Counted from the stretch's first letter, positions 4,723 through 39,073 are shown. The stretch is DNA of 40,000 nucleotides from Gammaproteobacteria bacterium (GCA_965222625.1 OZ244962.1:1459582-1499581), one strand, 5' to 3'. Notes: a model not told the origin generated them from the letters alone. Numbers and translations are program-made.

Positions 4723-7497
4723 ATGCTCAATATCGCAACTCGCTTAAAGACTTCATACAATAGCAACCTATTGCGCGGACGTATTTTACTGGGCATTTTT
4801 ATTCTTACTTGCGCGCTGATTATTGCCCGGGTTTTATTGTCTCCCGTTATCATTTATAGTGCAAATTCCTGGCTAGAGAAGCAGGCCATAGATTCGTCAA
4901 TTGAATCGATTGAAATTAGCCTATTTAGCGGCGATGTTTCATTGATTGATGTTCAGGGTAGTAAGGGCGGCAAGCCGCTTTTCAACATAGGCCGCGTTGA
5001 TGTTCACTGGCAATGGACGCCGCTGTCAGAAAAAATAGTTGAGATAACCGGCATATCGCTTGATACTTTGAATGTTAGCGTAGAAAAATATACCAACAAG
5101 ATTATTGTTGGCGGCGTTCACGTACCATTAGAACAAGCAATAAGCATAGCAGAAAATAAGCAAACGCCCGAAACAGAAAAAGAAGATTCCCCGTGGGGCG
5201 TTTCATTGGGCAAGATTAAATTGGCTAATTTAGATGTCTGCTATTTGGAACATACAGCTGTTTTTGAGCAATCAAGTGCAGATAATAAATATGTCGATTA
5301 TTGTCTCAAACTTGAAGAATTAAACTGGAATGGGGTGATTGGTTATGCAACGGATGAAGCGCTGCTTGCTGCTGATGATTTACCGCTTACTTCTACAGGT
5401 GACGTTTTGCTTAAAGCGCTAAAACTCACTGACAATAAATTACAAAAGCGGCTATTAGAAATTCAAACTGCTTCGTTAGAGGCGGTGGTTATTGCAGGGC
5501 TTAATAATCTGCACATTGAGAATTTAAACATACAAGCGTTATCGGCGCTTCACCGTGATGACGCACAACATGAAGATACGATTAATTTTAATAATCTGAA
5601 TCTTTCTGACATTAAACTAGACAACCTTAATGCGCTTAAAGTCGATGCAATCTTTGTTGATAGTCCCAATTTATACCTAGTTAAACAAAATGAAAATCAA
5701 TGGGAATATCAGCAGTGGCTGCCTAGCCCAGCCACCGAAGCTAAATCAGACTCAGCGCCTTTTAAGGTAAATATTAATGCAATTAGCGTTACCAAAGCTG
5801 ATTTGTGTTATTTAGAAAACCAGACTTTGCTAAATTATTGCCTTGCTTTGGATGATTTAAACTGGACAGGCGCCATTAACTTTGCATCCGAATTGTCGGC
5901 TAAAGGAGGGCTGGATCTTTCTAAGTTAAACATCTCAAATAATGCCATTGATCGCAGCCTGCTTAGCCTTGAGTCGCTTGCTGTAGATAATTTAGAAGTT
6001 GCAGAGCTTAATAAAATCAGTTTAGATAAATTTACCATACAAAATTTGTCCGCCTTACAGCGTAGCGCCCAACACGATGACGCTACGCTTGCTTTTAAAG
6101 CGTTAATCATCGACGATGTAAAATATTTCAATGAAAGCGCTGTGATTAATAACATCAGCTTATCTGGCCTAGCAAGCACTGTATCAAAAAACAAATCTGG
6201 CGATTGGGAGCATGATAAATGGCAGTCAAAAACTACTACTGACGACGCTACCAATACAGCTGCTAATGAAACTACCAATACAGCTGCTAATGAAACTACC
6301 AATACAGCTGCTAATGAAACTACCAATACAGCTGCTAATGAAACTACCAATACAGCTGCTAATGAAACTACCAATACAGCTGTTAAAGATTCTGATAGCA
6401 AGCCCTCTAAACCTTTCAAAATTTCGCTAAATACACTGACTATCAAAACTGAAAATAAGCTCTCTTTTATTGATAACTCGACCACACCGCCAATAGATCT
6501 TGGCCTCGAACAGCTTTCACTTGAGCTAAAAGATTTGCATTCATCCAAGCCAAAAACAGACAGTCCTTTTAAGCTTTCTGCCAAATCATCACGCCACGCC
6601 ACAATCGATATACACGGCAGTGTTCGACCGTTTGATGAAAAAGTTTCTTTTGTTGCTAATGGCGATTTAAAAGGATTTGATTTGCGCGCGATAACGCCTT
6701 CAACCACAAAAGCCATTGGGCATATTGTCAAAAGTGGGCAGCTTAACGCAAAACTCGCTCTACTAGCCAAAGACGGCGTTTTAGACAGCAATATGGCGCT
6801 TAGTTTGTATCAGTTTCACATAGAGCCAACCAGTAAGGAGGCCGGCGCAGAATTAGATGCTAAAGTTGGTATACCGTTAAATCAAACCTTGGTATTGCTG
6901 CGTGATAAAGATGACAGTATCCATCTAGATATTCCAATTACTGGCGACATTAACAAGCCTGATTTTGATCCAACGCAGGCCATTTTAAAGGCAACAACTA
7001 AAGCGGCAACGGTTGCATTAATTACCTTCTATACGCCGTATGGTCTTATTTATGCAGGCGGCAGTATACTTTTTGATTTGGCCACAGCTTTAAACTTTGA
7101 CCCTTTATTGTCTGAAGCAGGCAATTCCAAGCTAACTGCAGATCACAAAAAACAACTTGAAAATTTAACCAAACTATTAACCGAGAAGCCGCAAGTACGC
7201 TTAACTTTATGTGGCGCGACTAATCAAGCTGATTTTTTGATGCTTTATCCTAAGCCAAAAAACCAAAAACCTGTAAGTAAAGAAGTAAAACCTGCAAATA
7301 AAGAGGAAAAACCTGTGGCAATTAAGCCAAATAAAATGCAGAACGAAGCGCTCAATAAGCTGGCAACAGCGCGCCAGGTAAATAGCAAAAACTATCTTAT
7401 TGAAAAGGCCAAAATTGCGCATGATCGATTGATACTTTGTGAGCCTGATATTTCAGTTGAAGAGCGGGCGCTATCTGGGGTTGAGATAAATATTTAA
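4723..7497 (+). CDS. Large envelope-associated protein, DUF748/AsmA-like (924 aa) with N-terminal membrane anchor
   Basis: ATG ORF with N-terminal TM (ILLGIFILTCALIIARVLL). Repetitive beta-rich leucine/asparagine segments. Lys/Pro-rich tail. Family assignment is by eye only. Confidence 0.7.
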   Translation: MLNIATRLKTSYNSNLLRGRILLGIFILTCALIIARVLLSPVIIYSANSWLEKQAIDSSIESIEISLFSGDVSLIDVQGSKGGKPLFNIGRVDVHWQWTPLSEKIVEITGISLDTLNVSVEKYTNKIIVGGVHVPLEQAISIAENKQTPETEKEDSPWGVSLGKIKLANLDVCYLEHTAVFEQSSADNKYVDYCLKLEELNWNGVIGYATDEALLAADDLPLTSTGDVLLKALKLTDNKLQKRLLEIQTASLEAVVIAGLNNLHIENLNIQALSALHRDDAQHEDTINFNNLNLSDIKLDNLNALKVDAIFVDSPNLYLVKQNENQWEYQQWLPSPATEAKSDSAPFKVNINAISVTKADLCYLENQTLLNYCLALDDLNWTGAINFASELSAKGGLDLSKLNISNNAIDRSLLSLESLAVDNLEVAELNKISLDKFTIQNLSALQRSAQHDDATLAFKALIIDDVKYFNESAVINNISLSGLASTVSKNKSGDWEHDKWQSKTTTDDATNTAANETTNTAANETTNTAANETTNTAANETTNTAANETTNTAVKDSDSKPSKPFKISLNTLTIKTENKLSFIDNSTTPPIDLGLEQLSLELKDLHSSKPKTDSPFKLSAKSSRHATIDIHGSVRPFDEKVSFVANGDLKGFDLRAITPSTTKAIGHIVKSGQLNAKLALLAKDGVLDSNMALSLYQFHIEPTSKEAGAELDAKVGIPLNQTLVLLRDKDDSIHLDIPITGDINKPDFDPTQAILKATTKAATVALITFYTPYGLIYAGGSILFDLATALNFDPLLSEAGNSKLTADHKKQLENLTKLLTEKPQVRLTLCGATNQADFLMLYPKPKNQKPVSKEVKPANKEEKPVAIKPNKMQNEALNKLATARQVNSKNYLIEKAKIAHDRLILCEPDISVEERALSGVEINI
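6247..6382 (+). repeat. Perfect 24-bp in-frame tandem repeat, ~5.7 copies (unit ACTACCAATACAGCTGCTAATGAA, peptide TTNTAANE)
   Basis: Units start at 6247, 6271, 6295, 6319 and 6343, with a partial unit at 6367. They are identical except the first codon (GCT) of unit 1. Confidence 0.95.
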
Positions 7498-8899: not shown

Positions 8900-9750
8900 T
8901 CACTGAGTAGTATAGAATGCTTTTTCAAAATTATCTGGCGATTGATAATCTAAATAAGAATGTCGTCTAATCTTGTTGTAAAAAACCTCAATATATTCAA
9001 AGATTGAACTTTTTGCTTCGTCTAAGTTTTTGTAAGTTTGTTCATTAACAAGCTCTCGCTTTAAGGTGTTAAAAAAGCTTTCAGCCACGGCGTTGTCATG
9101 ACACACACCTTTGTTATTGCCCTGAGCGTAGCGAGGAAATACTCTTGGGGTGCATACTTTGTTCAATATCATTCTTTTTGAATAATGCTAAATAAGCATA
9201 AGCTCTATAGGTTGCACCTTGGTCAGAGTGTAGTAATACTGTTTGATTTTTAGGTTTATTCTTAATAGCCATCTTTAAGGCGCTAATGACTAAGGCAGTA
9301 TCATTATGTTTTGACATTGACCAACCTACAATCTTCCTAGAGAATAAATCCAGTACAGTAGCTAGATACAACCAACCTTGCTTCGTGTAAATAAAAGTCG
9401 TATCACTCACCCATTTTTGATTAGGGTGTTGTGCGTAGAATTCCCTATTTAGAATGTTGGCTGTAAAGCCAACATTATTGCGAGGTATTTTTACCCTCTT
9501 ATGTTTAATGGATAGCTTAGAGTAGATGCCATGTTCATGCATCATTCTAGCCACTTTTGTTCAAGCTGCATGAGATATTGTCTTCCTTTAAATCTTTGTA
9601 GATTCTAGGAGATCCGTAGTTGCACCTAGAGATTTTAAAGAAACGGATAATGTCCAATAAAATGACATTATTACGCTTACTCCGACTACTAATTGGTTTG
9701 GTATTCCAGTAGTAAAAACCACTTCTTGATACTTGCATACACCGACACAA
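8900..9750 (-). pseudogene. IS3-family transposase OrfB (DDE integrase core) split into three frames
   Basis: Fragments 9547-9750, 9114-9554 and 8900-9172 together read as an rve-type core (WVSDTTFI, HSDQGATY, CHDNAVAESFF). Two frame breaks (~9550 and ~9150) come on top of the normal orfA/orfB frameshift. Confidence 0.8.
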
Positions 9751-25807: not shown

Positions 25808-27186
25808 GACCTTGTAAACCAGATTGTGTAAACCCTCATATTTTATAATCCCTAAAAAGGAGAAAAAACATGAGTAACACAACACTAAGACAAAACCAAA
25901 AGAACCAACTGAACAACACAGGCATCAACCAACAAAAACTACGCGCTTTTGCTGATGAACTTGCCAAAGACATCCACACTCAAGATGACTTAGCAGACCT
26001 ATCTGCCTCACTGGTTAAAATGACCATTGAAGCAGCACTCGGCGGCGAGATGGAACATCATCTTGGCTATCCAAAGCATGGACAGAATAACAATACAATT
26101 GATATAAATAGTAACGCTCGCAATGGCTACTACCCGAAGATTGTTAAAAGCAATCATAGCGAAATTAAACTCGCCATTCCAAGGGATCGTAGTGGCGATT
26201 TTGAGCCCTTAATCGTTGAAAAAGGCCAAACACGATTGGGTGCTTTCGATTCTCAAATATTAAGCCTGTATGCTAAAGGCATGTCCACTCGTGACATCGT
26301 ATCAACCTTTAAAGAAATGTACGATGCAGACATATCAGCCACCTTGGTGTCTAATGTAACACAGGCGGTTATTGCTCAAGCAACTGAGTGGCGTAATCGT
26401 CCACTGGATGAGGTCTATCCTATTGTTTATTTAGACGGCATTGTTATTAAAGTCAGGCAAGACAAGCAAATCATTAAAAAGACGATGTATATCGCCCTCG
26501 GCGTTAACCTTGAAGGCAAAAAGGAATGCTTGGGTCTATGGCTGTCTAAAAACGAATCTTCCAAGTTTTGGCTAGGCGTTCTTAATGATATTGCTAATCG
26601 TGGCGTTAAAGACATTCTGATTGCTTCAGTGGATGGCTTAACAGGCTTCCCTGAAGCCATTAATGCCGTATTCCCACAGGCCGATGTTCAGCTATGTATT
26701 GTTCACATGGTGCGTAATTCACTCAAATATGTTGGCTATAAGGATAAAAAACAGGTTGCCAGTAGTCTTAAGCAAATTTATCAATCCATTAGTGAAGATG
26801 AAGCCTTACTTGCACTTGATGAATTTGAGCATCGCTGGGGTAAGCAATTCCCAAGTATTGGCAAATCATGGCGTAGGCATTGGGATAATGTGGCAACAAT
26901 ATTTGCTTATCCTGAGGCTATTAGAAGGGCTATCTATACAACCAATGCGATTGAATCTTTAAACTCAGTGATTCGTAAATCAATCAAGAATCGCAAGATT
27001 TTTAATCATGATAACTCCGCCTTTAAGGTTGTTTTTTTAGCCATTGAAGCAGCGAGTAAAAGATGGACTATGCCAATACGGAATTGGCCACAAGCAATGA
27101 ATCAGTTTATAATCCTACATGAGGATAGATTAAAGGATTATGTCTGATTTTTGACGAGGACTTTACACAATCTGGTTTACAGGGTC
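25808..27186 (+). mobile_element. IS256-family insertion sequence (~1379 bp)
   Basis: IRL GACCTTGTAAACCAGATTGTGTAAA (25808-25832). IRR is the reverse complement of 27162-27186, GACCCTGTAAACCAGATTGTGTAAA (24/25). The ...ATTGTGTAAA ends are typical of IS256-like IRs. It encloses a mutator-type transposase. Confidence 0.9.
25870..27147 (+). CDS. IS256-family (mutator-type) transposase
   Basis: 425 aa with AGGAGA RBS. Motifs EAALGGEMEHHLGY, DRSGDFEP, IVYLDGI, LIASVDGLTGF, VQLCIVHMVRNS, YTTNAIESLN. Confidence 0.93.
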   Translation: MSNTTLRQNQKNQLNNTGINQQKLRAFADELAKDIHTQDDLADLSASLVKMTIEAALGGEMEHHLGYPKHGQNNNTIDINSNARNGYYPKIVKSNHSEIKLAIPRDRSGDFEPLIVEKGQTRLGAFDSQILSLYAKGMSTRDIVSTFKEMYDADISATLVSNVTQAVIAQATEWRNRPLDEVYPIVYLDGIVIKVRQDKQIIKKTMYIALGVNLEGKKECLGLWLSKNESSKFWLGVLNDIANRGVKDILIASVDGLTGFPEAINAVFPQADVQLCIVHMVRNSLKYVGYKDKKQVASSLKQIYQSISEDEALLALDEFEHRWGKQFPSIGKSWRRHWDNVATIFAYPEAIRRAIYTTNAIESLNSVIRKSIKNRKIFNHDNSAFKVVFLAIEAASKRWTMPIRNWPQAMNQFIILHEDRLKDYV

Positions 27187-27673: not shown

Positions 27674-27730
27674 ACATAACGCTTGAATTCAACCGACGCG
27701 TTAGCGGTCGGCTGGAATGATTTGTTAGGC
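27674..27730 (-). other. attC recombination site (57 bp)
   Basis: On the minus strand: GCCTAAC-AAATCATTCCAGCCGACCGCTAACGCGTCGGTTGAATTCAAGC-GTTATGT. This gives R'' (RYYYAAC), an imperfect inner palindrome, and R' (GTTRRRY-like). Confidence 0.85.
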
Positions 27731-28657: not shown

Positions 28658-28825
28658 GCCTAACGGCGTGGCGATAACCTGCCTAGTTAAATTTATTTAG
28701 AGTTTACTCTATTTTTAAATTTCTAGGTCGGGTTGATTGGCTTGTTAGGTCGCCGCAGGCGATCTAACCAGTTAATCTATTAGCGCCACGCCGTTAGAGC
28801 CGATCGCCCTGCGGTCGGCTCTAAC
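28658..28825 (-). repeat. 168-bp conserved ORF-less attC-bearing unit, copy 1
   Basis: GCCTAAC-GGCGTGGCG...CGCCACGCC-GTTAGAG, followed by the hairpin GTTAGAGCCGA-TCGCCCTGCGG-TCGGCTCTAAC. >=95% identical to the five other copies, all exactly 168 bp. Confidence 0.9.
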
Positions 28826-28888
28826 GCCTTGCTCAGTGGCGTTTTATGCGACGGCATATAAAACGTCCACTGGAGCTGATTGTTAGGT
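28819..28888 (-). other. attC site of the enoyl-CoA hydratase cassette (70 bp)
   Basis: Minus strand: ACCTAAC ... inverted repeat CAGCTCCAGTGGACG / CGCCACTGAGCAAG ... GTTAGAG. It starts 5 nt after the stop codon. Confidence 0.8.
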
Positions 28889-28893
28889 GCTTT

Positions 28894-29724
28894 TTATTCT
28901 TGATTTAAACCAAGCTCTGCTGCGGTATCGGTAAACACTCCTTGGAAATCAGTGGCTTCTCTTTCTGTTTGTCCTCCGGACTTTAGAAAAGCCTTGATTA
29001 TAGTCTGTGTTTTAGCCTCATTTGCACGCTCTAGAAAGTACCGTAGTTCTAGATGAGCACCAGCCTCTTCATCCCTGATTGAGACGGACACAATATCTTT
29101 GTACATCATAATGTCTCGCAACTCTAAACCAGCCAATGCTTCGAGAAAGCTGTTCAAATATGTATCTAACTGAGTTTTAGGGATGTATTTAGTAATAATA
29201 TTCAGTGCTTCTGCTTGCTGTGACGAAAAATCCTCACCGGTTAAAAGCGCTTGCAAGCCTTTGCCTTTCCCCATTCGACGAGCAAATTGAACAGCTCCTT
29301 GGCCTCCAGTTGGAATATTTACGCCGATTTCTGGTTGAGCAAATGCGGCATTTTCTGTGCCATATGATAAATCGCAAGCCATTACAAACTCATTCCCACC
29401 ACCTCTTGCGATGCCATCTACGAGAACAATAGATAGTTGATTCATAGCTTTGATATTTTTTATCATTTGACTAAATGCCATAATTCCAGCTTTCCCACTT
29501 TCTGCACCATTGATAGTGTTCAAGTCTAAATGCGCTACAAAAAATAGTTTATGTGCAGATTTGAATACAACGGCTTTAGTTTCGTTGTCATTTTGCAGGG
29601 ATAAGATAAATTCATTAACCTCGTTGATCGTATCTACTGTCCAAATATTAGCTGGTGGGTTGTCAATAACAACTGTAGCTATTTTATTTTCTAAAGCGAT
29701 ATGCAATTTACTCATTTTGATCAT
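28894..29724 (-). CDS. Enoyl-CoA hydratase/isomerase (crotonase) family protein, integron cassette
   Basis: 276 aa. GIARGGGNEFVMACDLSYG oxyanion-hole region and a typical crotonase fold pattern. Confidence 0.85.
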   Translation of the reverse strand: MIKMSKLHIALENKIATVVIDNPPANIWTVDTINEVNEFILSLQNDNETKAVVFKSAHKLFFVAHLDLNTINGAESGKAGIMAFSQMIKNIKAMNQLSIVLVDGIARGGGNEFVMACDLSYGTENAAFAQPEIGVNIPTGGQGAVQFARRMGKGKGLQALLTGEDFSSQQAEALNIITKYIPKTQLDTYLNSFLEALAGLELRDIMMYKDIVSVSIRDEEAGAHLELRYFLERANEAKTQTIIKAFLKSGGQTEREATDFQGVFTDTAAELGLNQE

Positions 29725-29745
29725 ATTCCTATATTCTTGGATTTA

Positions 29746-29771
29746 TATAACGTTTGAATGACCTGTTAGGT
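29746..29771 (-). other. Collapsed attC remnant (R'' and R' cores only 13 nt apart)
   Basis: Minus strand: ACCTAAC-AGGTCATTCAAAC-GTTATAT, between the SDR stop and the crotonase start. There is no room for L''/L' arms. Confidence 0.6.
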
Positions 29772-29782
29772 CTTTTCATTAA

Positions 29783-30391
29783 TTACTCAGGAACTACCGG
29801 TAAACCACCCCATGCCCTTAAGACTTGACCGGTTATATTTTCTTCAACTGCCTCGACATACAACTTGGCAGTTTTTACCGCTGTAACTACGCCCTTACTC
29901 TCTTGACCAGGTTCAACAATTGGGGCCGGGCTGACGACATTAACTCTGATACCTCTAGGTAGGAGTGGTGCAGTATTTTTTACAAATGTATCAAGAGCGG
30001 AGTTTAGTGGCCCCGTAGCGATACTTGCTGGATTTGGATAATGACTTAAAAAGCCACTGGTAAATATAAACGAACCATTGTCACGTATAAAGTTTTGTCC
30101 AATTTTTAATAATCTTATCTGACCTAAGAATTTACGTTCATATCCGAATCTATAATCATCATCTTCCAATGTTTCGAAAGGTTTGAAAGCGCTATCACCT
30201 CCTGCAACTGATATTAAAGAATCAAATTTACCAATTTTCTCGAACATTCCGAGGACTGATTGTGGATTAGTGTAGTCACACTGAACATCACCACTATGTG
30301 CGCCGACTCGAATAATTTCATGATTTCCAGACAAGGCTTTATCTACTTCTTTGCCAAGCTTACCTGATGCCCCGACGATAATTATTTTCAT
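29783..30391 (-). CDS. Short-chain dehydrogenase/reductase-like NAD(P)-binding protein (202 aa), integron cassette
   Basis: MKIIIVGASGKLGKEV Rossmann glycine motif; short atypical-SDR length. Confidence 0.8.
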   Translation of the reverse strand: MKIIIVGASGKLGKEVDKALSGNHEIIRVGAHSGDVQCDYTNPQSVLGMFEKIGKFDSLISVAGGDSAFKPFETLEDDDYRFGYERKFLGQIRLLKIGQNFIRDNGSFIFTSGFLSHYPNPASIATGPLNSALDTFVKNTAPLLPRGIRVNVVSPAPIVEPGQESKGVVTAVKTAKLYVEAVEENITGQVLRAWGGLPVVPE

Positions 30392-30411
30392 ATGTACCTC
30401 ATGTTTTTAGA

Positions 30412-30579
30412 ACCTAACGGCGTGGCGATAACCAGCCTAGTTGAATTTATTTAGAGTTTACTCTATTTTTAAATTTCTAGGTCGGGTTGATTGGCTTGTT
30501 AGGTCGCCGCAGGCGATCTAACCAGTTAATTTATTAGCGCCACGCCGTTAGAGCCGATCGCCCTGCGGTCGGCTCTAAC
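30412..30579 (-). repeat. 168-bp conserved ORF-less attC-bearing unit, copy 2
   Basis: Same architecture as copy 1. Subtype with three linked substitutions (AACCAGCC, GTTGAATT, TTAATTTATT), shared with copy 3. Confidence 0.9.
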
Positions 30580-30629
30580 GCCTGAATTCACCTGACGCGT
30601 AAGCGGTCAGGTGGAATGATTTGTTAGGT
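30573..30629 (-). other. attC site (57 bp, GAATTC...CTGGAATGATT family)
   Basis: Plus strand: CTCTAACGCC-TGAATTCACCTGACGCGTAAGCGGTCAGGTGGAATGATTT-GTTAGGT. Confidence 0.8.
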
Positions 30630-30688
30630 GGTTTTGCTTCGCAAAAAATGTGACGCTTTTTACGGTCAGCTGGAAGCATTTGTTAGGC
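30630..30688 (-). other. Second, degenerate attC-like element in tandem (inner palindrome and R'' present, R' core mutated)
   Basis: Contains TGACGCTTTTTACGGTCAGCTGGAAGCATTTGTTAGGC, but the position of the other core reads CTTCGC instead of CTAACGC. The stop codon of ORF 30683-31285 lies inside GCCTAAC. Confidence 0.55.
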
Positions 30689-31285
30689 TTTTTTCATTAT
30701 TGAACCGGAATCTGAATTCCAGCACCAAACATTTGCAGGCTCTAAATGAACTCCCCCAATCCAGCGATCAAGGTTTGTAATTTCTAGCCAATTTCTTTTG
30801 CCAGACAACACATCCAAACCCGCAGGCGTAATAGTTAGCTCTTGGTCTTTAGCTGTTGGTAAGGTCAGTTTTTTACCCTCTGGTAATTTTAGTAATGCAG
30901 GACTTGAATCGAGAAACTCTTGAAGAATTTCCCAAAAACTTGAATCACCTAAAAATATTCGCTCTTCTAATTCTTGGTTGACACCGAACGCTTTACCTGC
31001 CAATTTTTCATTCTTTGATATAATCTCTAAAGCTTGTTGGGCTGTGCGTGACAAGCCATTATTACAATTAGGATATTCTTCTAACATCCTAATAACTGCA
31101 CCTTCCAAAAATGGTAGTTCAGAAATATTTTCATTTAGTAGCTGACTCCATAATTCAGGTGAGTTTTCTCGAAATGCCGACCAAGCTTTGCTAGAAAGCA
31201 TCAAATGCTTTTCTGTAACTGGTTCTTCATATTTCAATAAGTCTTTAGAATAAAAGGGGACGCTACCCTTTTTTAGGCCTGCCAA
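30683..31285 (-). pseudogene. DUF1835/DUF3658-like protein, 5'-truncated cassette gene
   Basis: The C-terminal pattern (GLSRTAQQALEII...FLGDSSFWEILQEFL...RWIGGVHL...WCWN) is recalled from the DUF1835/DUF3658 family. The ~100-aa N-terminal domain is missing. The first ~12 codons (TTG start) are read out of a REP-like hairpin. Confidence 0.45.
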
Positions 31286-31326
31286 TACCTTTAGAAACTA
31301 AAATAAAAGGGTGGCGTCCCCTTTAT

Positions 31327-31489
31327 ACATCAAGCAATAGGCCAGTATTTTTACTTTGTGCTTGGTGGTATAAATTTGCAATAGCTCAAGATAATAATCT
31401 TTATCTTGGTCGCAGAAAAATACATCTAATTTACGATTACCTCATGTGGTGTGGTATGTTGGAAAATACGTTTCTAGCTTTCTTGGCAT
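31327..31489 (-). pseudogene. Second, more degraded tandem copy of the RAYT 5' fragment
   Basis: Same sequence with a 1-bp and an 8-bp deletion. It reads ...GNRKLDVFFCDQDKDYYLELLQIYTTKHKVKILAYCLM and then breaks at the REP-like hairpin. Confidence 0.6.
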
Positions 31490-31528
31490 TTGGGTATTTT
31501 ACTATGAAACTAAAATAAAAGGGTAGCG

Positions 31529-31681
31529 TATTTTTACTTTGTGCTTGGTGGTATAAATTTGCAATAGCTCAAGATAATAATCTTTATCTTGGTCGCAGAA
31601 AAATACATCTAATTTACGATTACCTCTTTGGGTTATGTGGTGTGGTATGTTGGAAAATACGTTTCTAGCTTGTCTTGGCAT
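31529..31681 (-). pseudogene. RAYT / IS200-like Y1 transposase, 5' fragment (51 codons)
   Basis: Manual translation gives MPRQARNVFSNIPHHITQRGNRKLDVFFCDQDKDYYLELLQIYTTKHKVKI. This matches the MPRxxR...H(V/I)xQRGNxRxxxFFxDxDyxxYLxLL N-terminus of REP-associated tyrosine transposases. Too short for the ORF track. Confidence 0.7.
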
Positions 31682-31839
31682 TTGGGTATTTTACTATGAA
31701 ACTAAAATAAAAGGGTAGCGTCCCCTTTATTTCCTTTATTTCCCCTTTATTTGTTAGCCATTTTTTAAAGCAAGGTGTGAAACTGGAATAAAAGGGGCTG
31801 GAATGATTCCCCTTTATTTCCTTTATTTCCCCTTTATTT

Positions 31840-31872
31840 CGCCCTGCGGTCGGCTGGAATGATTTGTTAGGT
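31840..31872 (-). other. Half attC (R'' and L'' arm only) of the lipoprotein cassette, interrupted by the REP/RAYT remnant
   Basis: CGCCCTGCGGTCGGCTGGAATGATTTGTTAGGT equals the right half of the attC at 27674-27730. The GAATTC-containing left half is absent. Confidence 0.6.
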
Positions 31873-31892
31873 TTTCTTATTTTAAACAAATT

Positions 31893-32183
31893 TTATTTTT
31901 TCATAGAATCAATAAATTTATCAATAGGGTGACTACTTTTTCTAGATATAAGTTTATACCCTTTGGACTCAAAGCATAAATCTCTTAATTTTTTTATTCT
32001 TTCATTTTGGGCTGATTCACTCAATAGACCCTCTTGTGAATGTTTATTAGCTTCAAAAACACAATTTTTATAATCTAATTGTTCTTGCTCTGGTGTTGTT
32101 CCTGCCTTTTGCCAAACTGATGTTGTCTGACCACAAGCACTTATAAATATAACGAAACCAATCAAAATAAAATTTCTTTTCAT
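31893..32183 (-). CDS. Small lipoprotein (96 aa), integron cassette
   Basis: Signal peptide plus lipobox: MKRNFILIGFVIFISAC. Confidence 0.7.
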   Translation of the reverse strand: MKRNFILIGFVIFISACGQTTSVWQKAGTTPEQEQLDYKNCVFEANKHSQEGLLSESAQNERIKKLRDLCFESKGYKLISRKSSHPIDKFIDSMKK

Positions 32184-32233
32184 TTTTTTATCTCCATCTC
32201 TCTAAAAAAGAATAGAAAGATTTGAGAGATGAA

Positions 32234-32291
32234 ACCTAACGCTTAAATCAGCGGCGCGTCTTTTTGCGTCCGCTGGATTTTTTTGTTAGCT
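32234..32291 (-). other. attC site (58 bp, AATCAGCGG...CCGCTGGAT family)
   Basis: Plus strand: ACCTAACGC-TTAAATCAGCGGCGCGTCTTTTTGCGTCCGCTGGATTTTTTT-GTTAGCT. Confidence 0.8.
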
Positions 32292-33448
32292 GATTTTCAA
32301 CTAAAGTATTAAATTTATTATTTAAGTGGCTCGCTGAGTCTTGAGTTACTCTTTGGAATTTGGTTGAAGCAATCATTCCTGTTTGATCGACATAGTTAAA
32401 GTAAAAAATAGAAATTATGTAGGTTGAAAGTATAGTAATGACTGATGATGATATTGCCGATACTTCATAAGAAAAATACTCGTAAATGAAATTAAACAAA
32501 AAAACACCTAGAGTAGAAATAACGACAAATGTATTAGATATACAGAGAAAGATACTTTCCCCATAAAAACGAATATTTTTTTTGAGAAAAATGCATTTAA
32601 ATTAACACTAAAAATAATTGAATATACAGTTATTACTCCAGATGAAAAATTCCCCAAAGAGTATGAATATAAGCCAAAAATTGATGTTAATGCAGAATAT
32701 GACAAACTATCGTTATGTATACCAGCCAGATATAGCCCAAAGATAAGCAGTGGAATTGAAAATTTAGATTGAATATCTTTTCCATAAAAATAAAATAGAT
32801 GACCTACAATAAATGCGATTATTCCTAAGCCTAATTTAGCGGATAAGAGTTTAACCCCTACAAGAAAAATAACAGTAAAAATAAATAATAATTCTATATA
32901 CACTGTAGTTTTCTTATACCTTATTAGACACATAACGAAAACAATAAAAGAACCAATTAGCTCAACCTTCATAGTTCCATAAAACAGGATTGTAAGAACT
33001 TTTACCTACTAAAAAAGATTCTACTGTTCCACTATAAATAGCCCCTAATAATGAATAATCAAGACTCCCGTATCCGTTTATCCAATCAGTAAGAGCTGAT
33101 TTGTCAATAGTAAAATAATTAAAACATAAGAAAGCAAGGATGCACGATACAACAGCAGGAATCATTAATCGAGGGTATCGCTTAAGTGACATTGCAATTA
33201 ATTTATGAACATTACCTTTTAATGCAACATAAGTTAGTATATAGCCACTTAAAACAAAAAATATATAAACAGCTGATGTTCCTGAAACCAAAAGGTGAAT
33301 TATGGATAAATCCTTGAACTGAATTTTCTATACCTGCTTTCCCAGAAAATGCATGAAGATGTGGGAAAAAAGTTAAACTTAAATGAGCAAGAACCACCAT
33401 GAAACATGCTACTCCTCTAATTCCCTCAATTGCCTTTAATTTCATCAT
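32248..33448 (-). pseudogene. Acyltransferase-3 family membrane O-acyltransferase, multiply frameshifted cassette gene
   Basis: Four consecutive ORF pieces with no attC between them: 33212-33448, 32962-33291, 32508-32972, 32248-32499. Family motifs: IEGIRGVACFMVVLAHL, VYIFFVLSGYIL, and a C-terminal FYFNYVDQ. Confidence 0.75.
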
Positions 33449-33470
33449 GCGTGATCTCTATTTTTTGTAC

Positions 33471-33638
33471 AGCTAACGGCGTGGCGATAACCAGCCTAGT
33501 TGAATTTATTTAGAGTTTACTCTATTTTTAAATTTCTAGGTCGGGTTGATTGGCTTGTTAGGTCGCCGCAGGCGATCTAACCAGTTAATTTATTAGCGCC
33601 ACGCCGTTAGAGCCGATCGCTCTGCGGTCGGCTCTAAC
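33471..33638 (-). repeat. 168-bp conserved ORF-less attC-bearing unit, copy 3
   Basis: Same architecture. The hairpin loop carries one private substitution (TCGCTCTGCGG). Confidence 0.9.
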
Positions 33639-33730
33639 GCCTAAATCAGCGCGCGGCTAAAAGTGGCAGGGCTTTTGCGCCAGCAAAAGGCATGACGCTT
33701 TTAGACGTCCGCTGGATTTTTTTGTTATGT
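33632..33730 (-). other. attC site (99 bp, AATCAGCG...CCGCTGGAT family)
   Basis: CTCTAACGCC-TAAATCAGCGCGCGG...GACGTCCGCTGGATTTTTTT-GTTATGT with an internal palindrome GGGCTTTTGCGCCAGCAAAAGGC. Confidence 0.75.
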
Positions 33731-33746
33731 GATAATTTGAAAATAG

Positions 33747-34303
33747 TTAAGCCTTTTTAAAATGGGCGTTGAGATGCTCTTTATATGCTTGTTCAATCCA
33801 ACTGGTATCGCCAGCAATAACATTGCCAGCATGAAATGTTGGAATTTGATCTCGAATGCTGAGATAAGTATTTGTATAAATAAGAGGGCGTAAAAATCAT
33901 CAATATGAGGTGCGTTTTTTAAGACAACCCCTTTACCTAAATCACTACTTTTCAGGTTTGAAGTGGTAACTATCATGAATTTGTCTGCTGGAACCTGACC
34001 ACCCTCGCCATATTCTTCGGTAATAATAAAGGTTTTTTCATAAAGAAGAACTTCATCAAGCCACTTCACCATAGGAGCAGGCATATTGAACCACATAATT
34101 GGTGTGATATAGATAATGGTTTCAGCCCACAAAATTTTGGCTACTTCTCTGTCTACATTCCAAGTATCTTTTGTGACATCTGAAATTTTAACCTTATGCC
34201 CTTTGTCGGTAAGATTTTTTTCAGTTAGATAGGCAAGAAAGCTATTCAATTGCCCTTTGGCATCAAAAATTGAGTATCCAGCAGTAACGAGCAAGACTTT
34301 CAT
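33747..34303 (-). pseudogene. MdaB-like flavodoxin-fold NAD(P)H:quinone oxidoreductase with a frameshift near 33875-33893
   Basis: The N-terminal 140 aa fit the MdaB pattern (GQLN, GHKV, ILWAETIIYITPIMWFNMPAPMVKWLDEV). The track ORF (33725-34303) then turns hydrophobic and non-native. The alternative frame reads LIYTNTYLSIRDQIPTFHAGNVIAGDTSWIEQAYKEHLNAHFKKA* and ends at 33747. Confidence 0.65.
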
Positions 34304-34357
34304 CTGTTCTCCAATTTATTTAGTTTAGTGGCTGATTATAAACACTTTGGCTTTATC

Positions 34358-34525
34358 ACATAACGGCGTGGCGATAACCTGCCTAGTTAAATTTATTTAG
34401 AGTTTACTCTATTTTTAAATTTCTAGGTCGGGTTGATTGGCTTGTTAGGTTGCCGCAGGCGATCTAACCAGTTAATCTATTAGCGCCACGCCGTTAGAGC
34501 CGATCGCCCTGCGGTCGGCTCTAAC
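34358..34525 (-). repeat. 168-bp conserved ORF-less attC-bearing unit, copy 4
   Basis: Same architecture. One private substitution in the inner hairpin (GTTAGGTTGCC). Confidence 0.9.
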
Positions 34526-34575
34526 GCTTGAATTCAGCCGACGCGTTAGCGGTCGACTGGAATGATTTGTTAGGT
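34519..34575 (-). other. attC site (57 bp, GAATTC...CTGGAATGATT family)
   Basis: CTCTAACGC-TTGAATTCAGCCGACGCGTTAGCGGTCGACTGGAATGATTT-GTTAGGT. Confidence 0.85.
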
Positions 34576-34613
34576 GGTTTTAAATAATTAATGTTTGTGC
34601 CCCCCTTATTTTT

Positions 34614-35549
34614 TTAAGGCGACAATTGTTTTTTAACTATCCAGCTTAGCTTCTCATGATTCGCATTTAACCATATTTCAGCAGCCTCATCTTCTGTCTT
34701 GTTTTCACGGTTTATCGCATAATCCAGTTCAGCAACAATTTTATTCGACAGTTTTATACGGTCAAGATGCCCGATTTCGGCCGGGGTAAACAATCGATTT
34801 AAGCTATCTTGTCGAGCGAGAAGAACTGCGCGATCTTTTCCACCGAGTAACTTTTTTGGGTCGGTCAGTTCACGGATTTTGTATCTGTTGTGCAAAAACT
34901 GAGGTTGCCAAAGCGGCACCACAACCCAGCGTTTTTCAGCAACAGCATCTTCAAAAGCGGCAACACATTCTTGCTGTGTTCCTGTTAAAAATTTGTAGCC
35001 TGAATCTGTTAATTTATATTCATCCATCATTTTAATAGAAAATCGTGTAATCCCCGCACCGGCTCCAATACCTTGAATAATCGGCGTCATTCTTTCTTTA
35101 ACAGTAGGTTTTAAAAGATCGGAAATAGTGGAGACCTCAGACTCAGGAATGTAATCTGGCACACCCCATAAGGCATATGGTTGGTAATGTAATCCTAGTT
35201 CACGAGTAGAGGCTACCTCATCAACGCTTTGTTTGTAGACACCGTGGCTGGAGGGAAGCCAGGCAGAAGCAACCATATCAATTTCACCAGAACGCAGGCG
35301 AGCAAAGTTTTCTTTATGGGGATCAAAGCTACGAATTACGGTAAAGCCCATTCTTTCCAGAATAATGGCAACAACTGCTCCTGTGGCACGGTGAAAAGAC
35401 AGATCCGTAACGCCCAGTTTGACGACTTTGTTTTCTGTTATTGGTTTGATCTGTTGTTCAGTATCACCTGCATGAACTGTAGCAATATTCAGACTAGCAG
35501 CTATTATCATAAGGTTTCTTAAATACTTAGTAATGTCCATAATATGCAT
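34614..35549 (-). CDS. Glycine-betaine/compatible-solute ABC transporter substrate-binding protein (OpuAC family), orphan cassette gene
   Basis: Signal peptide (LMIIAASLNIATVHA). OpuAC-type pattern: LGVTDLSFHRATGAVVAIILERMGF, MVASAWLPSSHG, WVVVPLWQPQFL. No permease or ATPase genes are nearby. Confidence 0.8.
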   Translation of the reverse strand: MHIMDITKYLRNLMIIAASLNIATVHAGDTEQQIKPITENKVVKLGVTDLSFHRATGAVVAIILERMGFTVIRSFDPHKENFARLRSGEIDMVASAWLPSSHGVYKQSVDEVASTRELGLHYQPYALWGVPDYIPESEVSTISDLLKPTVKERMTPIIQGIGAGAGITRFSIKMMDEYKLTDSGYKFLTGTQQECVAAFEDAVAEKRWVVVPLWQPQFLHNRYKIRELTDPKKLLGGKDRAVLLARQDSLNRLFTPAEIGHLDRIKLSNKIVAELDYAINRENKTEDEAAEIWLNANHEKLSWIVKKQLSP

Positions 35550-35605
35550 TCCCCTAATTAAGTTTTATTGTCAAATAAAGCATTGTCAGGTGCTGGGCGT
35601 TTAAC

Positions 35606-35773
35606 ACCTAACGGCGTGGCGATAACCTGCCTAGTTAAATTTATTTAGAGTTTACTCTATTTTTAAATTTCTAGGTCGGGTTGATTGGCTTGTTAGGTCG
35701 CCGCAGGCGATCTAACCAGTTAATCTATTAGCGCCACGCCGTTAGCGCCGATCGCCCTGCGGTCGGCGCTAAC
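35606..35773 (-). repeat. 168-bp conserved ORF-less attC-bearing unit, copy 5
   Basis: Same architecture. The hairpin variant GTTAGCGCCGA...TCGGCGCTAAC carries a paired A>C / T>G change, shared with copy 6. Confidence 0.9.
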
Positions 35774-35858
35774 GCCTAGCATCAGCGGAAGACAAAAGAT
35801 GCAGAGCGAGGTACGAGTGGCGCAGCTTTTGGCTGTCCGCTGGATGCTTTTGTTAGGC
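35767..35858 (-). other. attC site (92 bp, ATCAGCGG...CCGCTGGAT family)
   Basis: CGCTAACGCC-TAGCATCAGCGGAAG...GGCTGTCCGCTGGATGCTTTT-GTTAGGC. Confidence 0.75.
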
Positions 35859-35883
35859 TATTTAATGCCACGACTTTCAATAA

Positions 35884-36111
35884 CTATTTCCATGTTGACA
35901 GGTCATAGCATTGATTTATTTTTGCTTTATATCCTTCTAGGGCAATACTGCCCAGAGGAGCGTTTGATAATGACTTAATATCCATCGCTGCTACCAATTT
36001 ATTTAATTTTCCTTCATCGCATCTTTGAGATGCTGTCGACCAGCCATTGAACCACATGTATACGACATAAATTAAAATTAAAACGCCTGCTGCTACGATG
36101 TAATGTTTCAT
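35884..36111 (-). CDS. Small membrane-anchored protein (75 aa), second ORF of the attI-proximal gene cassette
   Basis: N-terminal TM (IVAAGVLILIYVVYMWF). Starts 3 nt after the upstream stop. Two Cys residues in the exported part. Confidence 0.55.
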   Translation of the reverse strand: MKHYIVAAGVLILIYVVYMWFNGWSTASQRCDEGKLNKLVAAMDIKSLSNAPLGSIALEGYKAKINQCYDLSTWK

Positions 36112-36114
36112 TAC

Positions 36115-36381
36115 TTAAACTTCCTTGCCACAATAACGACATACTGCTGCTTCACTTTTGATTATTTCGGCACAATATGGACATTTTTTATTTTCGCCAG
36201 ATGATATTTTCTTTTCTTCTACATTATTTCTGTTTTCTCCAGCTACCAGCGCGGCGATGATGCCAATTAAGGGGCTTAGTATTACGGAAAGAAGGAAGAA
36301 CCCAAAACCGGAGCGACCTTTATTGCTGGCAATTACGCCTGCGATGATGCTCAGAAAGAGCCAGAGGACAAAAATTTCCAT
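36115..36381 (-). CDS. Small membrane protein with C-terminal zinc-ribbon (88 aa), first ORF of the attI-proximal gene cassette
   Basis: Strong RBS (AAGGAGAAGTA-ATG). Two TM helices, then CPYCAEIIKSEAAVCRYCG (CxxC...CxxC). Confidence 0.7.
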   Translation of the reverse strand: MEIFVLWLFLSIIAGVIASNKGRSGFGFFLLSVILSPLIGIIAALVAGENRNNVEEKKISSGENKKCPYCAEIIKSEAAVCRYCGKEV

Positions 36382-36407
36382 TACTTCTCCTTATGTGTTG
36401 TTTTGAA

Positions 36408-36575
36408 GCCTAACGGCGTGGCGATAACCTGCCTAGTTAAATTTATTTAGAGTTTACTCTATTTTTAAATTTCTAGGTCGGGTTGATTGGCTTGTTAGGT
36501 CGCCGCAGGCGATCTAACCAGTTAATCTATTAGCGCCACGCCGTTAGCGCCGATCGCCCTGCGGTCGGCGCTAAC
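36408..36575 (-). repeat. 168-bp conserved ORF-less attC-bearing unit, copy 6, directly joined to attI
   Basis: Same architecture. Its GTTAGCG core (36569-36575, minus strand) is the junction with unique attI-side sequence, with no short attC in between. Confidence 0.9.
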
Positions 36576-36728
36576 TATTAGTATCAGGCACTATCGCCTT
36601 GATACACTGTATTAAAAACAAAATCAGGCATATTTGCATGGTTATTAGTAAAAACCTGTCAATAAGACCTGATATTGAGTATTATAAGAAAAATCTGTTA
36701 ATATTTTTCTCACACACTTTTAATACTG
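36569..36728 (-). other. attI region and divergent intI / cassette promoter region
   Basis: Unique sequence between intI and the first GTTAGCG core. Imperfect inverted repeat GTATCAGG (36581-36588) / CCTTGATAC (36597-36605) next to the core. Candidate intI promoter TTGAGT (36675-36680)-17 nt-TTAATA (36698-36703). No convincing Pc was identified. Confidence 0.6.
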
Positions 36729-37709
36729 ATGGCAATTATAACTCAAAACAAAACCTTATTACAAGAGATGCAAACACTACTGCGCAGGCAGGCTTACGCC
36801 TATGCGACAGAAAAAACCTACTTAGATTGGGCGGGTCGATTTATCAGGTTTCATCAATTAAAAAACAAACAATCTTTACTTGAAAACGCTGAACAAAAGG
36901 TTGAGGCGTATTTGACTTATTTGGCGCTTGAACAGAGCGTTGCTCCTAGCACTCAGAATCAAGCTTTAAACGCTTTGGTATTTTTATATACTAAGGTTTT
37001 ACAAAGGCCTTTGGAAGGTGTTAATGCGGCGCGTTCGCGCAAAGAGCCGCGTATTCCTGTGGTGCTTAGCAAAAAAGAAGTGGCGCAAGTGCTGAGTTTG
37101 ATTGATGGTACAGTTGGGTTGATTGTGAAGCTTTTATATGCCGGAGGTTTGCGAATTTCAGAGGCGGTGCGCCTGCGGGTGCAGGATATTGATTTTGAGT
37201 TTAAACAAATCACGGTGCGTGATGGTAAAGGCAAAAAAGACAGAGTAACGCCGTTGGCAAATAGCCTAATTATTGTGCTGCAAACACACTTAGAAAAAAT
37301 AAAAATCATTCATAATAAAGACTTAAAAGACGGCTTTGGTAGCGTGTATTTGCCTTATGCTTTGGCTAAAAAATATTCGAATGCAGATAAGGCGTTTAAT
37401 TGGCAATATGTATTTCCTAGTAGGGGTATTGCCACCGATCCGCGCACTGATATTAAAAGGCGTCATCATGTGGATCAATCGGTGATTAATAAGGCGATTA
37501 AAAGGGCGGTTAAACAATGCGATATTCACAAAAAAGTATCGGCACATGCGTTTCGCCATTCGTTTGCCACGCATTTGTTGCAAACGGGCACGGATATTCG
37601 CACTATCCAAGCCTTGCTGGGGCATAGCGATTTGCAAACCACGATGATTTACACCCATGTTTTAAAGCAAGGCGGGCAAGGGGTGGTTTCGCCGCTGGAT
37701 AAATTGTGA
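36729..37709 (+). CDS. intI: Integron integrase IntI (tyrosine recombinase with the IntI-specific insertion)
   Basis: 326 aa. Catalytic residues present: R (GGLRISEAVRL), HxxR (HAFRHSFATHLL), Y (TMIYTHV). IntI-specific extra segment: KYSNADKAFNWQYVFPSRGIATDPRTDIKRRHHVDQS. Divergent from the attC array. Confidence 0.93.
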   Translation: MAIITQNKTLLQEMQTLLRRQAYAYATEKTYLDWAGRFIRFHQLKNKQSLLENAEQKVEAYLTYLALEQSVAPSTQNQALNALVFLYTKVLQRPLEGVNAARSRKEPRIPVVLSKKEVAQVLSLIDGTVGLIVKLLYAGGLRISEAVRLRVQDIDFEFKQITVRDGKGKKDRVTPLANSLIIVLQTHLEKIKIIHNKDLKDGFGSVYLPYALAKKYSNADKAFNWQYVFPSRGIATDPRTDIKRRHHVDQSVINKAIKRAVKQCDIHKKVSAHAFRHSFATHLLQTGTDIRTIQALLGHSDLQTTMIYTHVLKQGGQGVVSPLDKL

Positions 37710-38486: not shown

Positions 38487-38744
38487 GTGATTATGTTACA
38501 AGCAACAATGGCAGATATGCGAAAATCGATTGATTTTTTCCAAACTAATGAGGTTATTAGTATCATTAATGGCAGAAAAAAACAAGAGCTAGGTTATTTT
38601 GTGCCGACTTATTTTAAGACGGATTTTTTAAATTTTTTAAATGAGCTTGATAAAAAAAAGCGCTTACAAAACGCTATTAAAGCTGCAAATGCACAAAAAT
38701 TAGATCCGATTTCAGATGCCAGTGTTGGGGACGGCATTGAATGA
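38487..38744 (+). CDS. Type II antitoxin (family not assigned)
   Basis: 85-aa ORF preceded by AAGGAAG. 4-nt ATGA overlap with the MazF/PemK-like toxin gene. ATG 38493 is an alternative start. Confidence 0.65.
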   Translation: MIMLQATMADMRKSIDFFQTNEVISIINGRKKQELGYFVPTYFKTDFLNFLNELDKKKRLQNAIKAANAQKLDPISDASVGDGIE

Positions 38745-39073
38745 ATCTTAACCAAGGTGACATCTATTTAGTTAATTTTGACCCTGTTAAAAAAGGCGAG
38801 ATGGGCAAATTAAGACCCGCTATTATTTTAAGTGACAATCAAGATTCAACTTTATTTGCAACGGTTGTTGTCATGCCACTTTCGAGTATTGTCATTAAAG
38901 ATAATATGCCTTATCGATATACTATTAGCAAACGCGCTAAGCTAAAAAAAGACTCGGATGCTTGTATTTATGAAATTCGCTCATTGTCAAAATCAAGAGT
39001 TAAAGAGAAAATTGCAAGCATTGATACCAATGAGTTAAATGACATTCGCCAAGCACTACATAGCCTATTATGA
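38741..39073 (+). CDS. Type II toxin, PemK/MazF family endoribonuclease
   Basis: [27 protein letters not shown]...VVVMPLSS...IRSLSKSRV pattern, 110 aa. Confidence 0.85.

Follow-up and report, generated by a model that had tools for sequence, protein, structure and literature searches.

A gene-less, attC-like unit repeated along the chromosomal integron of Candidatus Thioglobus

The integron and its six repeats

We analyzed a stretch of 40,000 nucleotides from a gammaproteobacterial genome (GCA_965222625.1, OZ244962.1:1459582-1499581; hereafter the window), in which a chromosomal integron carries six 168-bp repeats, read on the minus strand (the cassette direction) and interleaved with gene cassettes downstream of the integrase gene intI. 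The host is Candidatus Thioglobus; the RefSeq names of the housekeeping proteins beside the integron are those of Candidatus Thioglobus sp., and homologues of the integrase IntI (67-83% identity) are encoded by Thioglobus, by mussel symbionts and by related Thiotrichales. The cassette array extends leftwards on the minus strand from attI, where an inverted repeat (AAGGCGATAGTGCCT) stands directly before TAATAG|TT, to a copy of an IS256-family insertion sequence at 25870-27147, the transposase of which delimits the array in the window. The features of the integron platform and the repeated units, the latter given with the 161-bp boundaries derived in the next section, are as follows:

36729-37709, plus strand: intI, integron integrase, 326 aa (TIGR02249, 421 bits; cut-off, 265)
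36575-36728, minus strand: attI region, with the crossover between G36575 and T36574
36414-36574, minus strand: mini-cassette copy 6, 161 bp, GCG/CGC variant, first array position (covariance model, 208 bits)
35612-35772, minus strand: mini-cassette copy 5, 161 bp, GCG/CGC variant
34364-34524, minus strand: mini-cassette copy 4, 161 bp, GAG/CTC variant with A at position 75
33477-33637, minus strand: mini-cassette copy 3, 161 bp, variant 49A/137C/146T
30418-30578, minus strand: mini-cassette copy 2, 161 bp, variant 49A/137C/146T (missing precisely in contig L003)
28664-28824, minus strand: mini-cassette copy 1, 161 bp, reference variant

An earlier note on this DNA had listed six repeats of 168 bp, and each of them was recovered in its place. 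The repeats differ from one another at 1-8 positions per pair (identity of at least 95.2%); the note had given at least 95% identity and at most about 7 differences. A 49-nt internal pattern of the unit matched six times in the window, compared with 0 matches expected by chance. In the cassette direction, each repeat consists of G|TTAG(A/C)G, a 19-nt mini-hairpin (CCGAcCGCaggGCGaTCGG), C(T/G)CTAAC, GGCGTGGCG, a 110-nt three-way junction, CGCCACGCC and G|TTAGGY; the unit itself is composed of a 142-nt attC-like site and the 19-nt mini-hairpin. This is the anatomy that had been described in the note, namely a G|TT start, an R''-like core, a long stem around two hairpins and an R' core. Both inner hairpins are present, but the second is not well conserved in relatives. 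The parts of copy 1 are located as follows:

28793-28825, minus strand: hairpin 1, composed of the upstream R' (GTTAGAG), the mini-hairpin CCGAcCGCaggGCGaTCGG and the unit's own R'' (CTCTAAC)
28665-28792, minus strand: attC body, with the stem GGCGTGGCG/CGCCACGCC around the three-way junction
about 28735-28777: hairpin 2, within the three-way junction
about 28676-28734: AT-rich hairpin, within the three-way junction

The units contain no open reading frame (ORF), the longest stop-free stretch being 26 codons. The note had also stated that no ATG occurs; there is none inside the unit, but the repeats do include one, in the copy 4 junction GTTATGT, where it forms part of the next cassette. A consensus scan of both strands, requiring 9 or more matches out of 12, detected no sigma70-like site inside the unit, in agreement with the note's judgment by eye that a strong sigma70 promoter was lacking. 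No T-run follows the long stem, and a terminator-like site on the plus strand, with a weak T-run, was found by the same type of scan in copies 2 and 3 only. No unit matched any Rfam family at E values up to 1.

Boundaries, population variation and relatives

We placed the crossover points over the whole array and compared G plus the first 7 nt of each cassette with the 8-mer near its own 3' end. Complementarity between these two segments is the trace of a circular cassette whose core site splits on insertion. In all six units, G plus the first 7 nt was complementary to the unit's own inverse core at 8 of 8 positions, 137 nt from the unit end; the single ordinary cassettes likewise scored 8/8 in every case, and two compound blocks scored 7/8. 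Because this signature lies at the unit's own inverse core, the mobile unit is 161 bp long, and the 168-bp repeat, whose length had been given correctly, comprises the 161-bp unit (e.g. 30418-30578), one base of the preceding site and six bases of the next cassette. Each unit is bounded by two G|TT crossover points and has its own R'/R'' pair, and the last bases of the core differ between copies, as the note had reported. The upstream contexts of the six units are all different (attI and five different attCs), the flanks reading ATAG at attI and GGCG or AGCG at the attCs, and a gene cassette lies directly after each of the six.

We then considered four other contigs (L003-L006) from two metagenome samples, in which the IntI protein is identical to that of the window and which represent strain variants of the locus. 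The change between GAG/CTC and GCG/CGC (positions 6 and 28), which had been interpreted as a stem-preserving substitution in a 33-bp hairpin, is indeed paired in 22 of 22 copies of the window and these contigs, but its meaning is simpler: it is the normal cassette-boundary signature, the first six bases being the unit's own R' from the circular form. L004 carries the same six units as the window. For 3.2 kb, as far as the SDR cassette, L003 and the window are 100% identical; in L003, the same 57-nt attC is then joined straight to that cassette (...GAATTCAGCCG|TTAGGTTCTAAAA) and exactly the 161 bp of copy 2 are missing. Moreover, L003 and L006 lack 802 bp, corresponding to one unit (copy 5 or 6) plus the 641-bp cassette between copies 6 and 5. 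The variants also change places: the attI-proximal copy of L005 is of the 75A type, which is the third-position variant, and the unit between the OpuAC and flavodoxin-like cassettes is GAG/75A in the window and GCG in L003 and L006. Ordinary cassettes are polymorphic as well, an approximately 840-bp cassette being present in L003-L005 and not in the window; it encodes 242 aa with a weak NucS_C match (L003, 5462-6303), and its junction corresponds to window position ~32237-32241.

The precise 161-bp absence and the variant swaps imply that the unit is separable from the short attCs and turns over within the population. Copy 6 adjoins attI directly, with no short attC between them, as had been noted, and junctions of the same kind occur in five array types (the window, L008, L024, L012 and L013). 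Population-level evidence of independent movement of the unit thus comes both from its presence or absence in L003 and from these attI junctions. Together with the 8/8 boundaries and the variant swaps, these observations support the proposal of the earlier note, in which the unit was seen as recombining on its own rather than as a portion of the adjacent attC. As judged from the sequences of these populations, the unit is the most mobile item in the array.

To delimit the family, we searched the loci around IntI homologues by BLAST with the unit and then with covariance models built only from the unit family itself. By BLAST, two identical copies were found in L008, one of them adjoining attI; this locus lies at another chromosomal site and encodes an IntI 83% identical to that of the window. 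When metagenomes were scanned with a 20-mer that the window and L008 have in common, two real loci, L023 and L024, and two chance matches were returned. L023 and L024 are marine metagenome contigs with one copy, joined to an attI-like end. In L024, positions 1152-1757 hold the attI-like end, the unit and ordinary cassettes, and tblastn detected no intI within 1.7 kb upstream; this contig may represent an integron that has lost intI. Among the three types (window, L008 and L023/L024), the units are 89.6-90.7% identical, compared with DNA identities between lineages of 77% for intI and 79% for the attI region. The first covariance model further revealed a diverged full-length homologue in L012 and L013 (48 bits, E ~6e-9), which are of the Bathymodiolus-symbiont type of Thioglobus with an IntI 82% identical. 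This element measures 168 bp between crossover points, with the core pair GTTCACAC/GTGTGAAC, a first hairpin of 13 bp and a stem of 12 bp (GGTGGAGTTGAC/GTCAACTCCACC), both perfectly paired. It adjoins attI in both loci, and L013 has a unit-gene-unit arrangement. attI ends homologous to that of the window were found in L008, L012, L013, L024, L030 and L032.

A second covariance model, which included the L012/L013 type, identified no further members among the fetched loci, and no member was found in L007, L009-L011, L014-L017, L025-L029, L031 or L032 (IntI relatives at 74%, and other lineages at 79-85%). In collections of plasmids, phages and viral contigs, no match to the unit was obtained. A scan of a genome collection requiring both stem arms exactly gave only two GC-rich chance matches (Planctomycetia and Acidimicrobiales, with 25 nt in common with the unit), this pattern being too strict to show absence; genuine relatives carry GGCGTAGCA or GGCGTGGCA and are hence missed by it. 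A metagenome scan with CTAACGGCGTGGCGCTAATA gave no match, the pattern likewise being too strict. Within the window and 32 loci (~370 kb), no copy lies outside an array, and none of the findings that the note had named as refuting its interpretation was encountered in this material. Two candidates were rejected. The repeats of L009 at 17-19 kb represent a scaffold gap and coding duplications and are unrelated to the unit. The first cassette of L030 was not counted as a member, because only a motif resembling hairpin 1 fits (16.9 bits) and its fold is modest (z ~-3.7). This cassette (L030, 9-155; IntI 79% identical) is nevertheless a 147-bp ORF-less element directly after attI, which opens with a hairpin of like design (GTTCAAAACGGC...GCCGTTTTGAAC) and holds a second TTTTGAAC; it may represent a third, more distant type of mini-cassette.

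Every lineage carrying the family has a copy in first position, directly after attI. The cassette that follows this first-position unit varies:

window, L004 and L005: 88/75-aa zinc-ribbon cassette
L003 and L006: OpuAC
L008: 157-aa ORF
L023/L024: 133-aa ORF
L013: acetyltransferase
L012: type I restriction-modification genes

In the window, units and genes alternate strictly over the four positions nearest attI, and farther out gene cassettes adjoin each other.

Fold, comparison with attC sites and further features of the array

We computed single-strand folding energies of the repeat and compared them with those of shuffled sequences. The values were -49.8 kcal/mol for the plus strand (z = -8.9) and -45.2 kcal/mol for the minus strand (z = -6.7). 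Covariation was then scored on a model-guided alignment of 11 distinct sequences; fitting to the model favours the structure, and the margin is large. Standard pairs occupied 96.7% of the cells, and compensatory double changes were observed in 30 of 60 pairs, distributed over all six helices. When the partners were slid by 1-3 columns as a control, 27-37% of the cells paired and at most 6 pairs showed compensatory changes; none of the column shuffles attained the observed values of pairing or covariation. In hairpin 1, all 14 pairs are kept across the family, 5 of them with compensatory changes. An alignment of the three close types that was not fitted to the model already contained three compensatory pairs, and in this alignment the distal part of the second hairpin is not maintained.

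The non-Watson-Crick cells of the top strand comprise 8 A.C, which correspond to G.T on the bottom strand, versus 1 G.T. This asymmetry implies that the sense transcript is not the selected fold. When the closed 161-nt circle was folded in silico, the bottom strand was 5-7 kcal/mol more stable than the top strand, with 79-84% of the bases paired (z = -13.8). In this fold, the core pair lies midway in a continuous helix of ~20 bp, the ends of which are closed by the mini-hairpin and by the branched structure. G also exceeds C on the bottom strand in all four types. The mismatch types and the folding energies therefore point to the bottom DNA strand as the favoured fold. A bottom-strand bias has been reported for attC sites, in which the bottom strand is the recombined strand (PMC5027507).

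For comparison, the bottom-strand folds of seven canonical attC sites of the array were examined:

35767-35858, minus strand: attC of the 88/75-aa cassette, 92 nt, with an internal loop and bulges
34519-34575, minus strand: attC of the OpuAC cassette, 57 nt
33632-33730, minus strand: attC of the flavodoxin-like cassette, 99 nt
32234-32291, minus strand: attC of the acyltransferase cassette, 58 nt, with no unit after it
30573-30629, minus strand: attC upstream of copy 2, 57 nt
28819-28888, minus strand: attC of the enoyl-CoA hydratase cassette, upstream of copy 1, 70 nt
27674-27730, minus strand: attC of the PDDEXK cassette, near the distal end of the array, 57 nt

On the bottom strand, these ordinary sites (57-99 nt) reach folding energies of -7.5 to -27 kcal/mol; their core helix is accompanied by an internal loop of 3-4 nt and, on one of the arms, by bulges of a single base. 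The 142-nt site of the unit, in contrast, folds at -40 kcal/mol into 14 uninterrupted pairs from the core, with neither an internal loop nor a bulge. Its long stem is continuous with the core over 14 bp in place and 16 bp in the circle, and its arms are equal in length, with no extrahelical bases. Irregularities of the stem are limited to C.T at position 17 in the window and A.C at position 13 in L008; L024 has none in 19 bp. In these predicted folds, two of the three unpaired features that define attC sites, the central spacer and the extrahelical bases, are absent from the unit. Its CTCTAAC and GTTAGAG fit RYYYAAC and GTTRRRY at 6 of 7 positions each, with the invariant triplets AAC and GTT present; in the L012/L013 type (TGTGAAC and GTTCACA), only AAC and GTT fit. 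The unit shares with canonical attCs, including long branched ones such as the Vibrio cholerae repeats (VCR) and attCereA2, the AAC/GTT ends of the core, the G|TT crossover, a bottom-strand palindrome and a bottom strand richer in G than in C. It differs from them in that the R box, spacer and L region form a single uninterrupted helix of 14-19 bp, and at 142 nt it reaches or slightly exceeds the range of 57-141 quoted for attCs. A branched variable terminal structure occurs in some chromosomal attCs (PMC5027507); the terminal structure is variable in canonical attCs, whereas that of the unit is conserved as a whole.

Several other features of these arrays were recorded. In L005, two inverted IS256-family copies lie within the array (1439-2716 and 5278-6555), and in L006 a further copy (689-1966) cuts one unit down to 150-162 bp. 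The region 31250-31890 of the window contains hairpins resembling repetitive extragenic palindromes (REP; AAAGGGGACGCYACCCTTTTATTTTAGTTTC), together with a duplicated 106-bp segment (two copies, 97% identical) from the N-terminal part of a gene that resembles a REP-associated tyrosine transposase. This region breaks an attC at ~31870, which has CCGACCGCAGGGCGA in common with the unit's mini-hairpin, and it varies between strains, L003 lacking 31273-31807 and L004 lacking 31530-31807. At the end of the SDR cassette, the attC-like sequence is aberrant and very short (GACCTAACAGGTCATTCAAACGTTATAT; 29745-29775), so the SDR and enoyl-CoA hydratase cassettes constitute one block between units 2 and 1. 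At 30630-30690, half an attC of the long type (the 5' half, GCCTAACAAATGCTTCCAGCTGACCG...) is joined to a complete 57-nt attC; it looks like the remnant of a lost or fused cassette. The acyltransferase cassette (32248-33448) contains three ORFs in the window and a single gene of 402 aa in L004; the window gene is frameshifted, in an otherwise near-identical array. Between intI and attI, the spacers of L013 (~1505-1530), L012 (~9225-9245), L008 and L032 contain perfect TTGACA and TATAAT motifs 9 nt apart, and the window (~36690-36712) has TTAACA-N9-TATAAT. This motif is conserved among the relatives, and its 9-nt spacing is wrong for a sigma70 promoter. Finally, a MazF/PemK toxin gene with a small upstream ORF (38487-39073) lies on the non-array side of intI, between a TauE-like gene and the rnf operon, and is absent from the syntenic locus L017.

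What the units may be

On balance, we think it probable, by a modest measure, that the units are minimal gene-less cassettes consisting of little but an attC and spread by the integron integrase. Such an attC-only unit is probably selfish; among the functions that had been suggested for it, this one fits best. In the proposed mechanism, IntI would fold and cut the bottom strand and excise the unit as a 161-nt single-stranded circle, predicted to adopt a dumbbell shape in which nearly all bases are paired and the R box is central, and to carry the junction ...CGCCACGCCG|TTAGAGCC.... Integron recombination is resolved by replication, and one daughter chromosome keeps the donor copy; because the donor copy is kept, re-insertion at attI would add a copy. 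The unit would insert preferentially at attI, and its copy number would thereby rise. A highly efficient mini-cassette would re-colonise attI after each acquisition of a gene cassette, giving a unit-gene-unit-gene order near attI, while tandem unit-unit pairs would collapse and distal copies would be lost over time. An element that re-inserts more often than genes arrive would always be found next to attI, and its alternation with recent arrivals would follow from the collapse of tandem copies. As no gene is carried, there would be no selection for features that orient expression, and the spacer and extrahelical bases may be missing because this selection is relaxed. As a side effect, the 161-bp blocks of homology and the identical attC sites would be able to mobilise or delete blocks of ordinary cassettes. 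These steps are drawn from general integron knowledge, in part from PMC5027507. A bolder version is also quite possible, if somewhat short of probable: the family would be a self-propagating integron parasite and the counterpart of miniature inverted-repeat transposable elements (MITEs), its conserved dumbbell circle would be the most efficient substrate of the integrase despite the missing spacer and extrahelical bases, and it would permanently hold the attI-proximal slot, thereby shaping the capture, expression and shuffling of cassettes.

Several points weigh against this interpretation. Excision and insertion by IntI, the circles, the binding of IntI and activity between attI and the unit are all steps that we infer. 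Two unpaired features by which working attC sites are defined, the central spacer and the extrahelical bases, are missing from the unit, and deletion of the extrahelical bases reduced the recombination of VCR2 50-fold (PMC5027507). The published results on this point are mixed and in part favour our reading: the same deletion caused no notable loss of bottom-strand recombination in attCaadA7 and attCoxa2, in which strand choice was relaxed (PMC5027507). All copies are in one orientation, and a site that lacks features for strand discrimination would not obviously produce such uniformity. Homologous recombination or gene conversion between the 161-bp repeats, independent of IntI, could yield block deletions and variant swaps, and could have contributed to the 802-bp polymorphism, although it cannot account for insertion at six different junctions. 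Slippage across the hairpin, which is flanked by CGTTAG repeats, could yield the deletion of a single unit. In addition, the contigs are metagenome assemblies, in which repeats can be mis-assembled and single-nucleotide polymorphisms mixed between strains. Lastly, conservation that is above that of intI and extends to the whole branched structure exceeds the known needs of an attC and could reflect a function at the level of the host.

We weighed four other explanations for the units. One of them, which we regard as unlikely but worth serious attention, is that the unit is a promoter cassette that starts or modulates the transcription of the following cassettes, or of intI from the first position, and that spreads because carrier hosts express distal cassettes. 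The gene cassette directly following each of the six units, the unit's AT-rich segment and the conservation of the unit above that of intI are in line with this idea. Most gene-less Vibrio cassettes tested had sense promoter activity that was unpredictable in silico (PMC11014356), and promoters were also found in ORF-less Treponema cassettes, antisense ones at the first position being proposed to raise intI expression (PMC8876359). However, the consensus scans (threshold, 9 of 12 matches) gave no sigma70-like site within the unit in either direction and thus lend no support to the promoter module that the note had listed; the best candidates found by hand (8/12) are not conserved between the window and L012/L013 types, and it is base pairing that is conserved rather than hexamers. 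The A.C versus G.T asymmetry indicates that the sense transcript is not the selected fold, the SDR cassette is retained in L003 without its unit, and known promoter cassettes have 335-515 bp of non-attC sequence, compared with 19 bp here. It is less likely still that the unit is a portable recombination module kept for the benefit of the integron, whose copies flank blocks for excision and re-insertion, including cassettes with a damaged attC, and whose attI-proximal copy is a landing site. The 802-bp polymorphism, whose extent is precisely that of a unit and a cassette lying between two identical units, agrees with such a module, as do the truncated or interrupted attCs in unit-flanked blocks (SDR plus enoyl-CoA hydratase; 96-aa/REP/200-aa) and the persistence of the first-position copy while its downstream neighbour changes. 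The module nevertheless leaves the gain and loss of single units unexplained, and a group-level benefit is a weak selective force compared with self-propagation, of which the same products arise as by-products.

The strong covariation in six helices raises the further idea of a structured non-coding RNA, either a plus-strand antisense small RNA or a cis-acting RNA element for which the cassette is only the vehicle. The wobble and mismatch asymmetry does favour the plus-strand sequence, and ORF-less cassettes encoding small RNAs have been reported in Xanthomonas (PMC8876359). Folding of the attC bottom strand predicts an identical strand bias (PMC5027507), however, and the recombination cores themselves lie within the helices; there is no Rfam match at E values up to 1 and no plus-strand promoter or terminator flanking the unit, save the weak terminator-like site in two copies. 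We consider an RNA role very improbable. Least credible of the four, and scarcely to be expected, is a dispersed repeat (a REP, a REPIN, i.e. a REP doublet forming a hairpin, a MITE or an IS200/IS605-type palindrome) moved by a transposase that targets attC-like sequence. The unit is small, palindromic and multicopy, and fragments of a REP-associated tyrosine-transposase-like gene with REP-like hairpins stand in the same array (31250-31890), but these hairpins are unrelated in sequence to the unit. Every copy lies at a G|TT junction in an array, with none elsewhere in ~370 kb, the upstream flank varies instead of presenting a constant target (ATAG at attI; GGCG/AGCG at attCs), and the ends of the unit are integron core sites with cassette-type complementarity. 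An IS200/IS605-type or REP element was rejected on account of the variable upstream flanks and the restriction to arrays in the loci covered. A terminator or insulator, which had also been put forward, was rejected because no T-run follows the long stem.

The proposed attC-only cassettes have partial precedents. Paralogous non-coding cassettes are known in Vibrio, the commonest reaching 6 copies in Vibrio sp. DAT722 and 45 and 34 copies in two V. vulnificus strains (PMC1382264); they are >80% conserved between species and confined to one bacterial group, and the same two hypotheses, selfish or regulatory, were raised for them (Boucher et al. 2006, PMC1382264). Like the unit, they are gene-less and repeated within one array. 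Compared with their description, the unit is set apart by its host, Candidatus Thioglobus, by consisting almost only of an attC with 19 nt besides, by an attC whose sequence and structure place it in another class than the remaining attCs of its own array, by a fold conserved through compensatory changes, and by the copy always next to attI. Gene-less promoter cassettes are also established (Blanco et al. 2024, PMC11014356; Tansirichaiya et al. 2019, PMC6557892), with total lengths of 491-666 bp, 335-515 bp of non-attC sequence and canonical attCs of 101-127 bp. They resemble the unit in having no ORF and an attC of their own, and in lying between gene cassettes and being able to influence neighbours, whereas the unit has 161 bp, 19 nt of non-attC sequence and no recognisable promoter. 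The likeness to MITEs and REPINs is an analogy of lifestyle only, both being short, structured, multicopy and gene-less with a recombinase encoded elsewhere; for the unit, the implied enzyme is the integron integrase, insertion takes place only at the G|TT points of attI and attC, and there are no terminal inverted repeats with target-site duplication. In the open-access literature, we found no paper on integrons in Thioglobus and none describing a reiterated attC-only cassette. Reiterated, conserved and lineage-restricted non-coding cassettes are thus already known from Vibrio; what is new here is the reduction to an attC plus 19 nt, the deviant class of this attC, the fold covarying across lineages, the constant attI-proximal slot and the host group.

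Integron cassettes are usually treated as gene vehicles, and attC sites as being defined by three unpaired features. The present family reduces the cassette to its recombination site, and two of the three unpaired features are absent from it. Should the unit turn out to act as a promoter or other regulator, no cassette is known to carry one nearly as small. If the integrase does recombine it, the unit would represent a natural minimal substrate for examining attC requirements and strand choice, and a concrete case of selection on a cassette's own spread rather than on that of its host. The identical copies would then serve as sites for deleting, duplicating and moving blocks of ordinary cassettes, and would affect the rate of array turnover in Thioglobus, to which abundant bacteria of the ocean as well as mussel symbionts belong.

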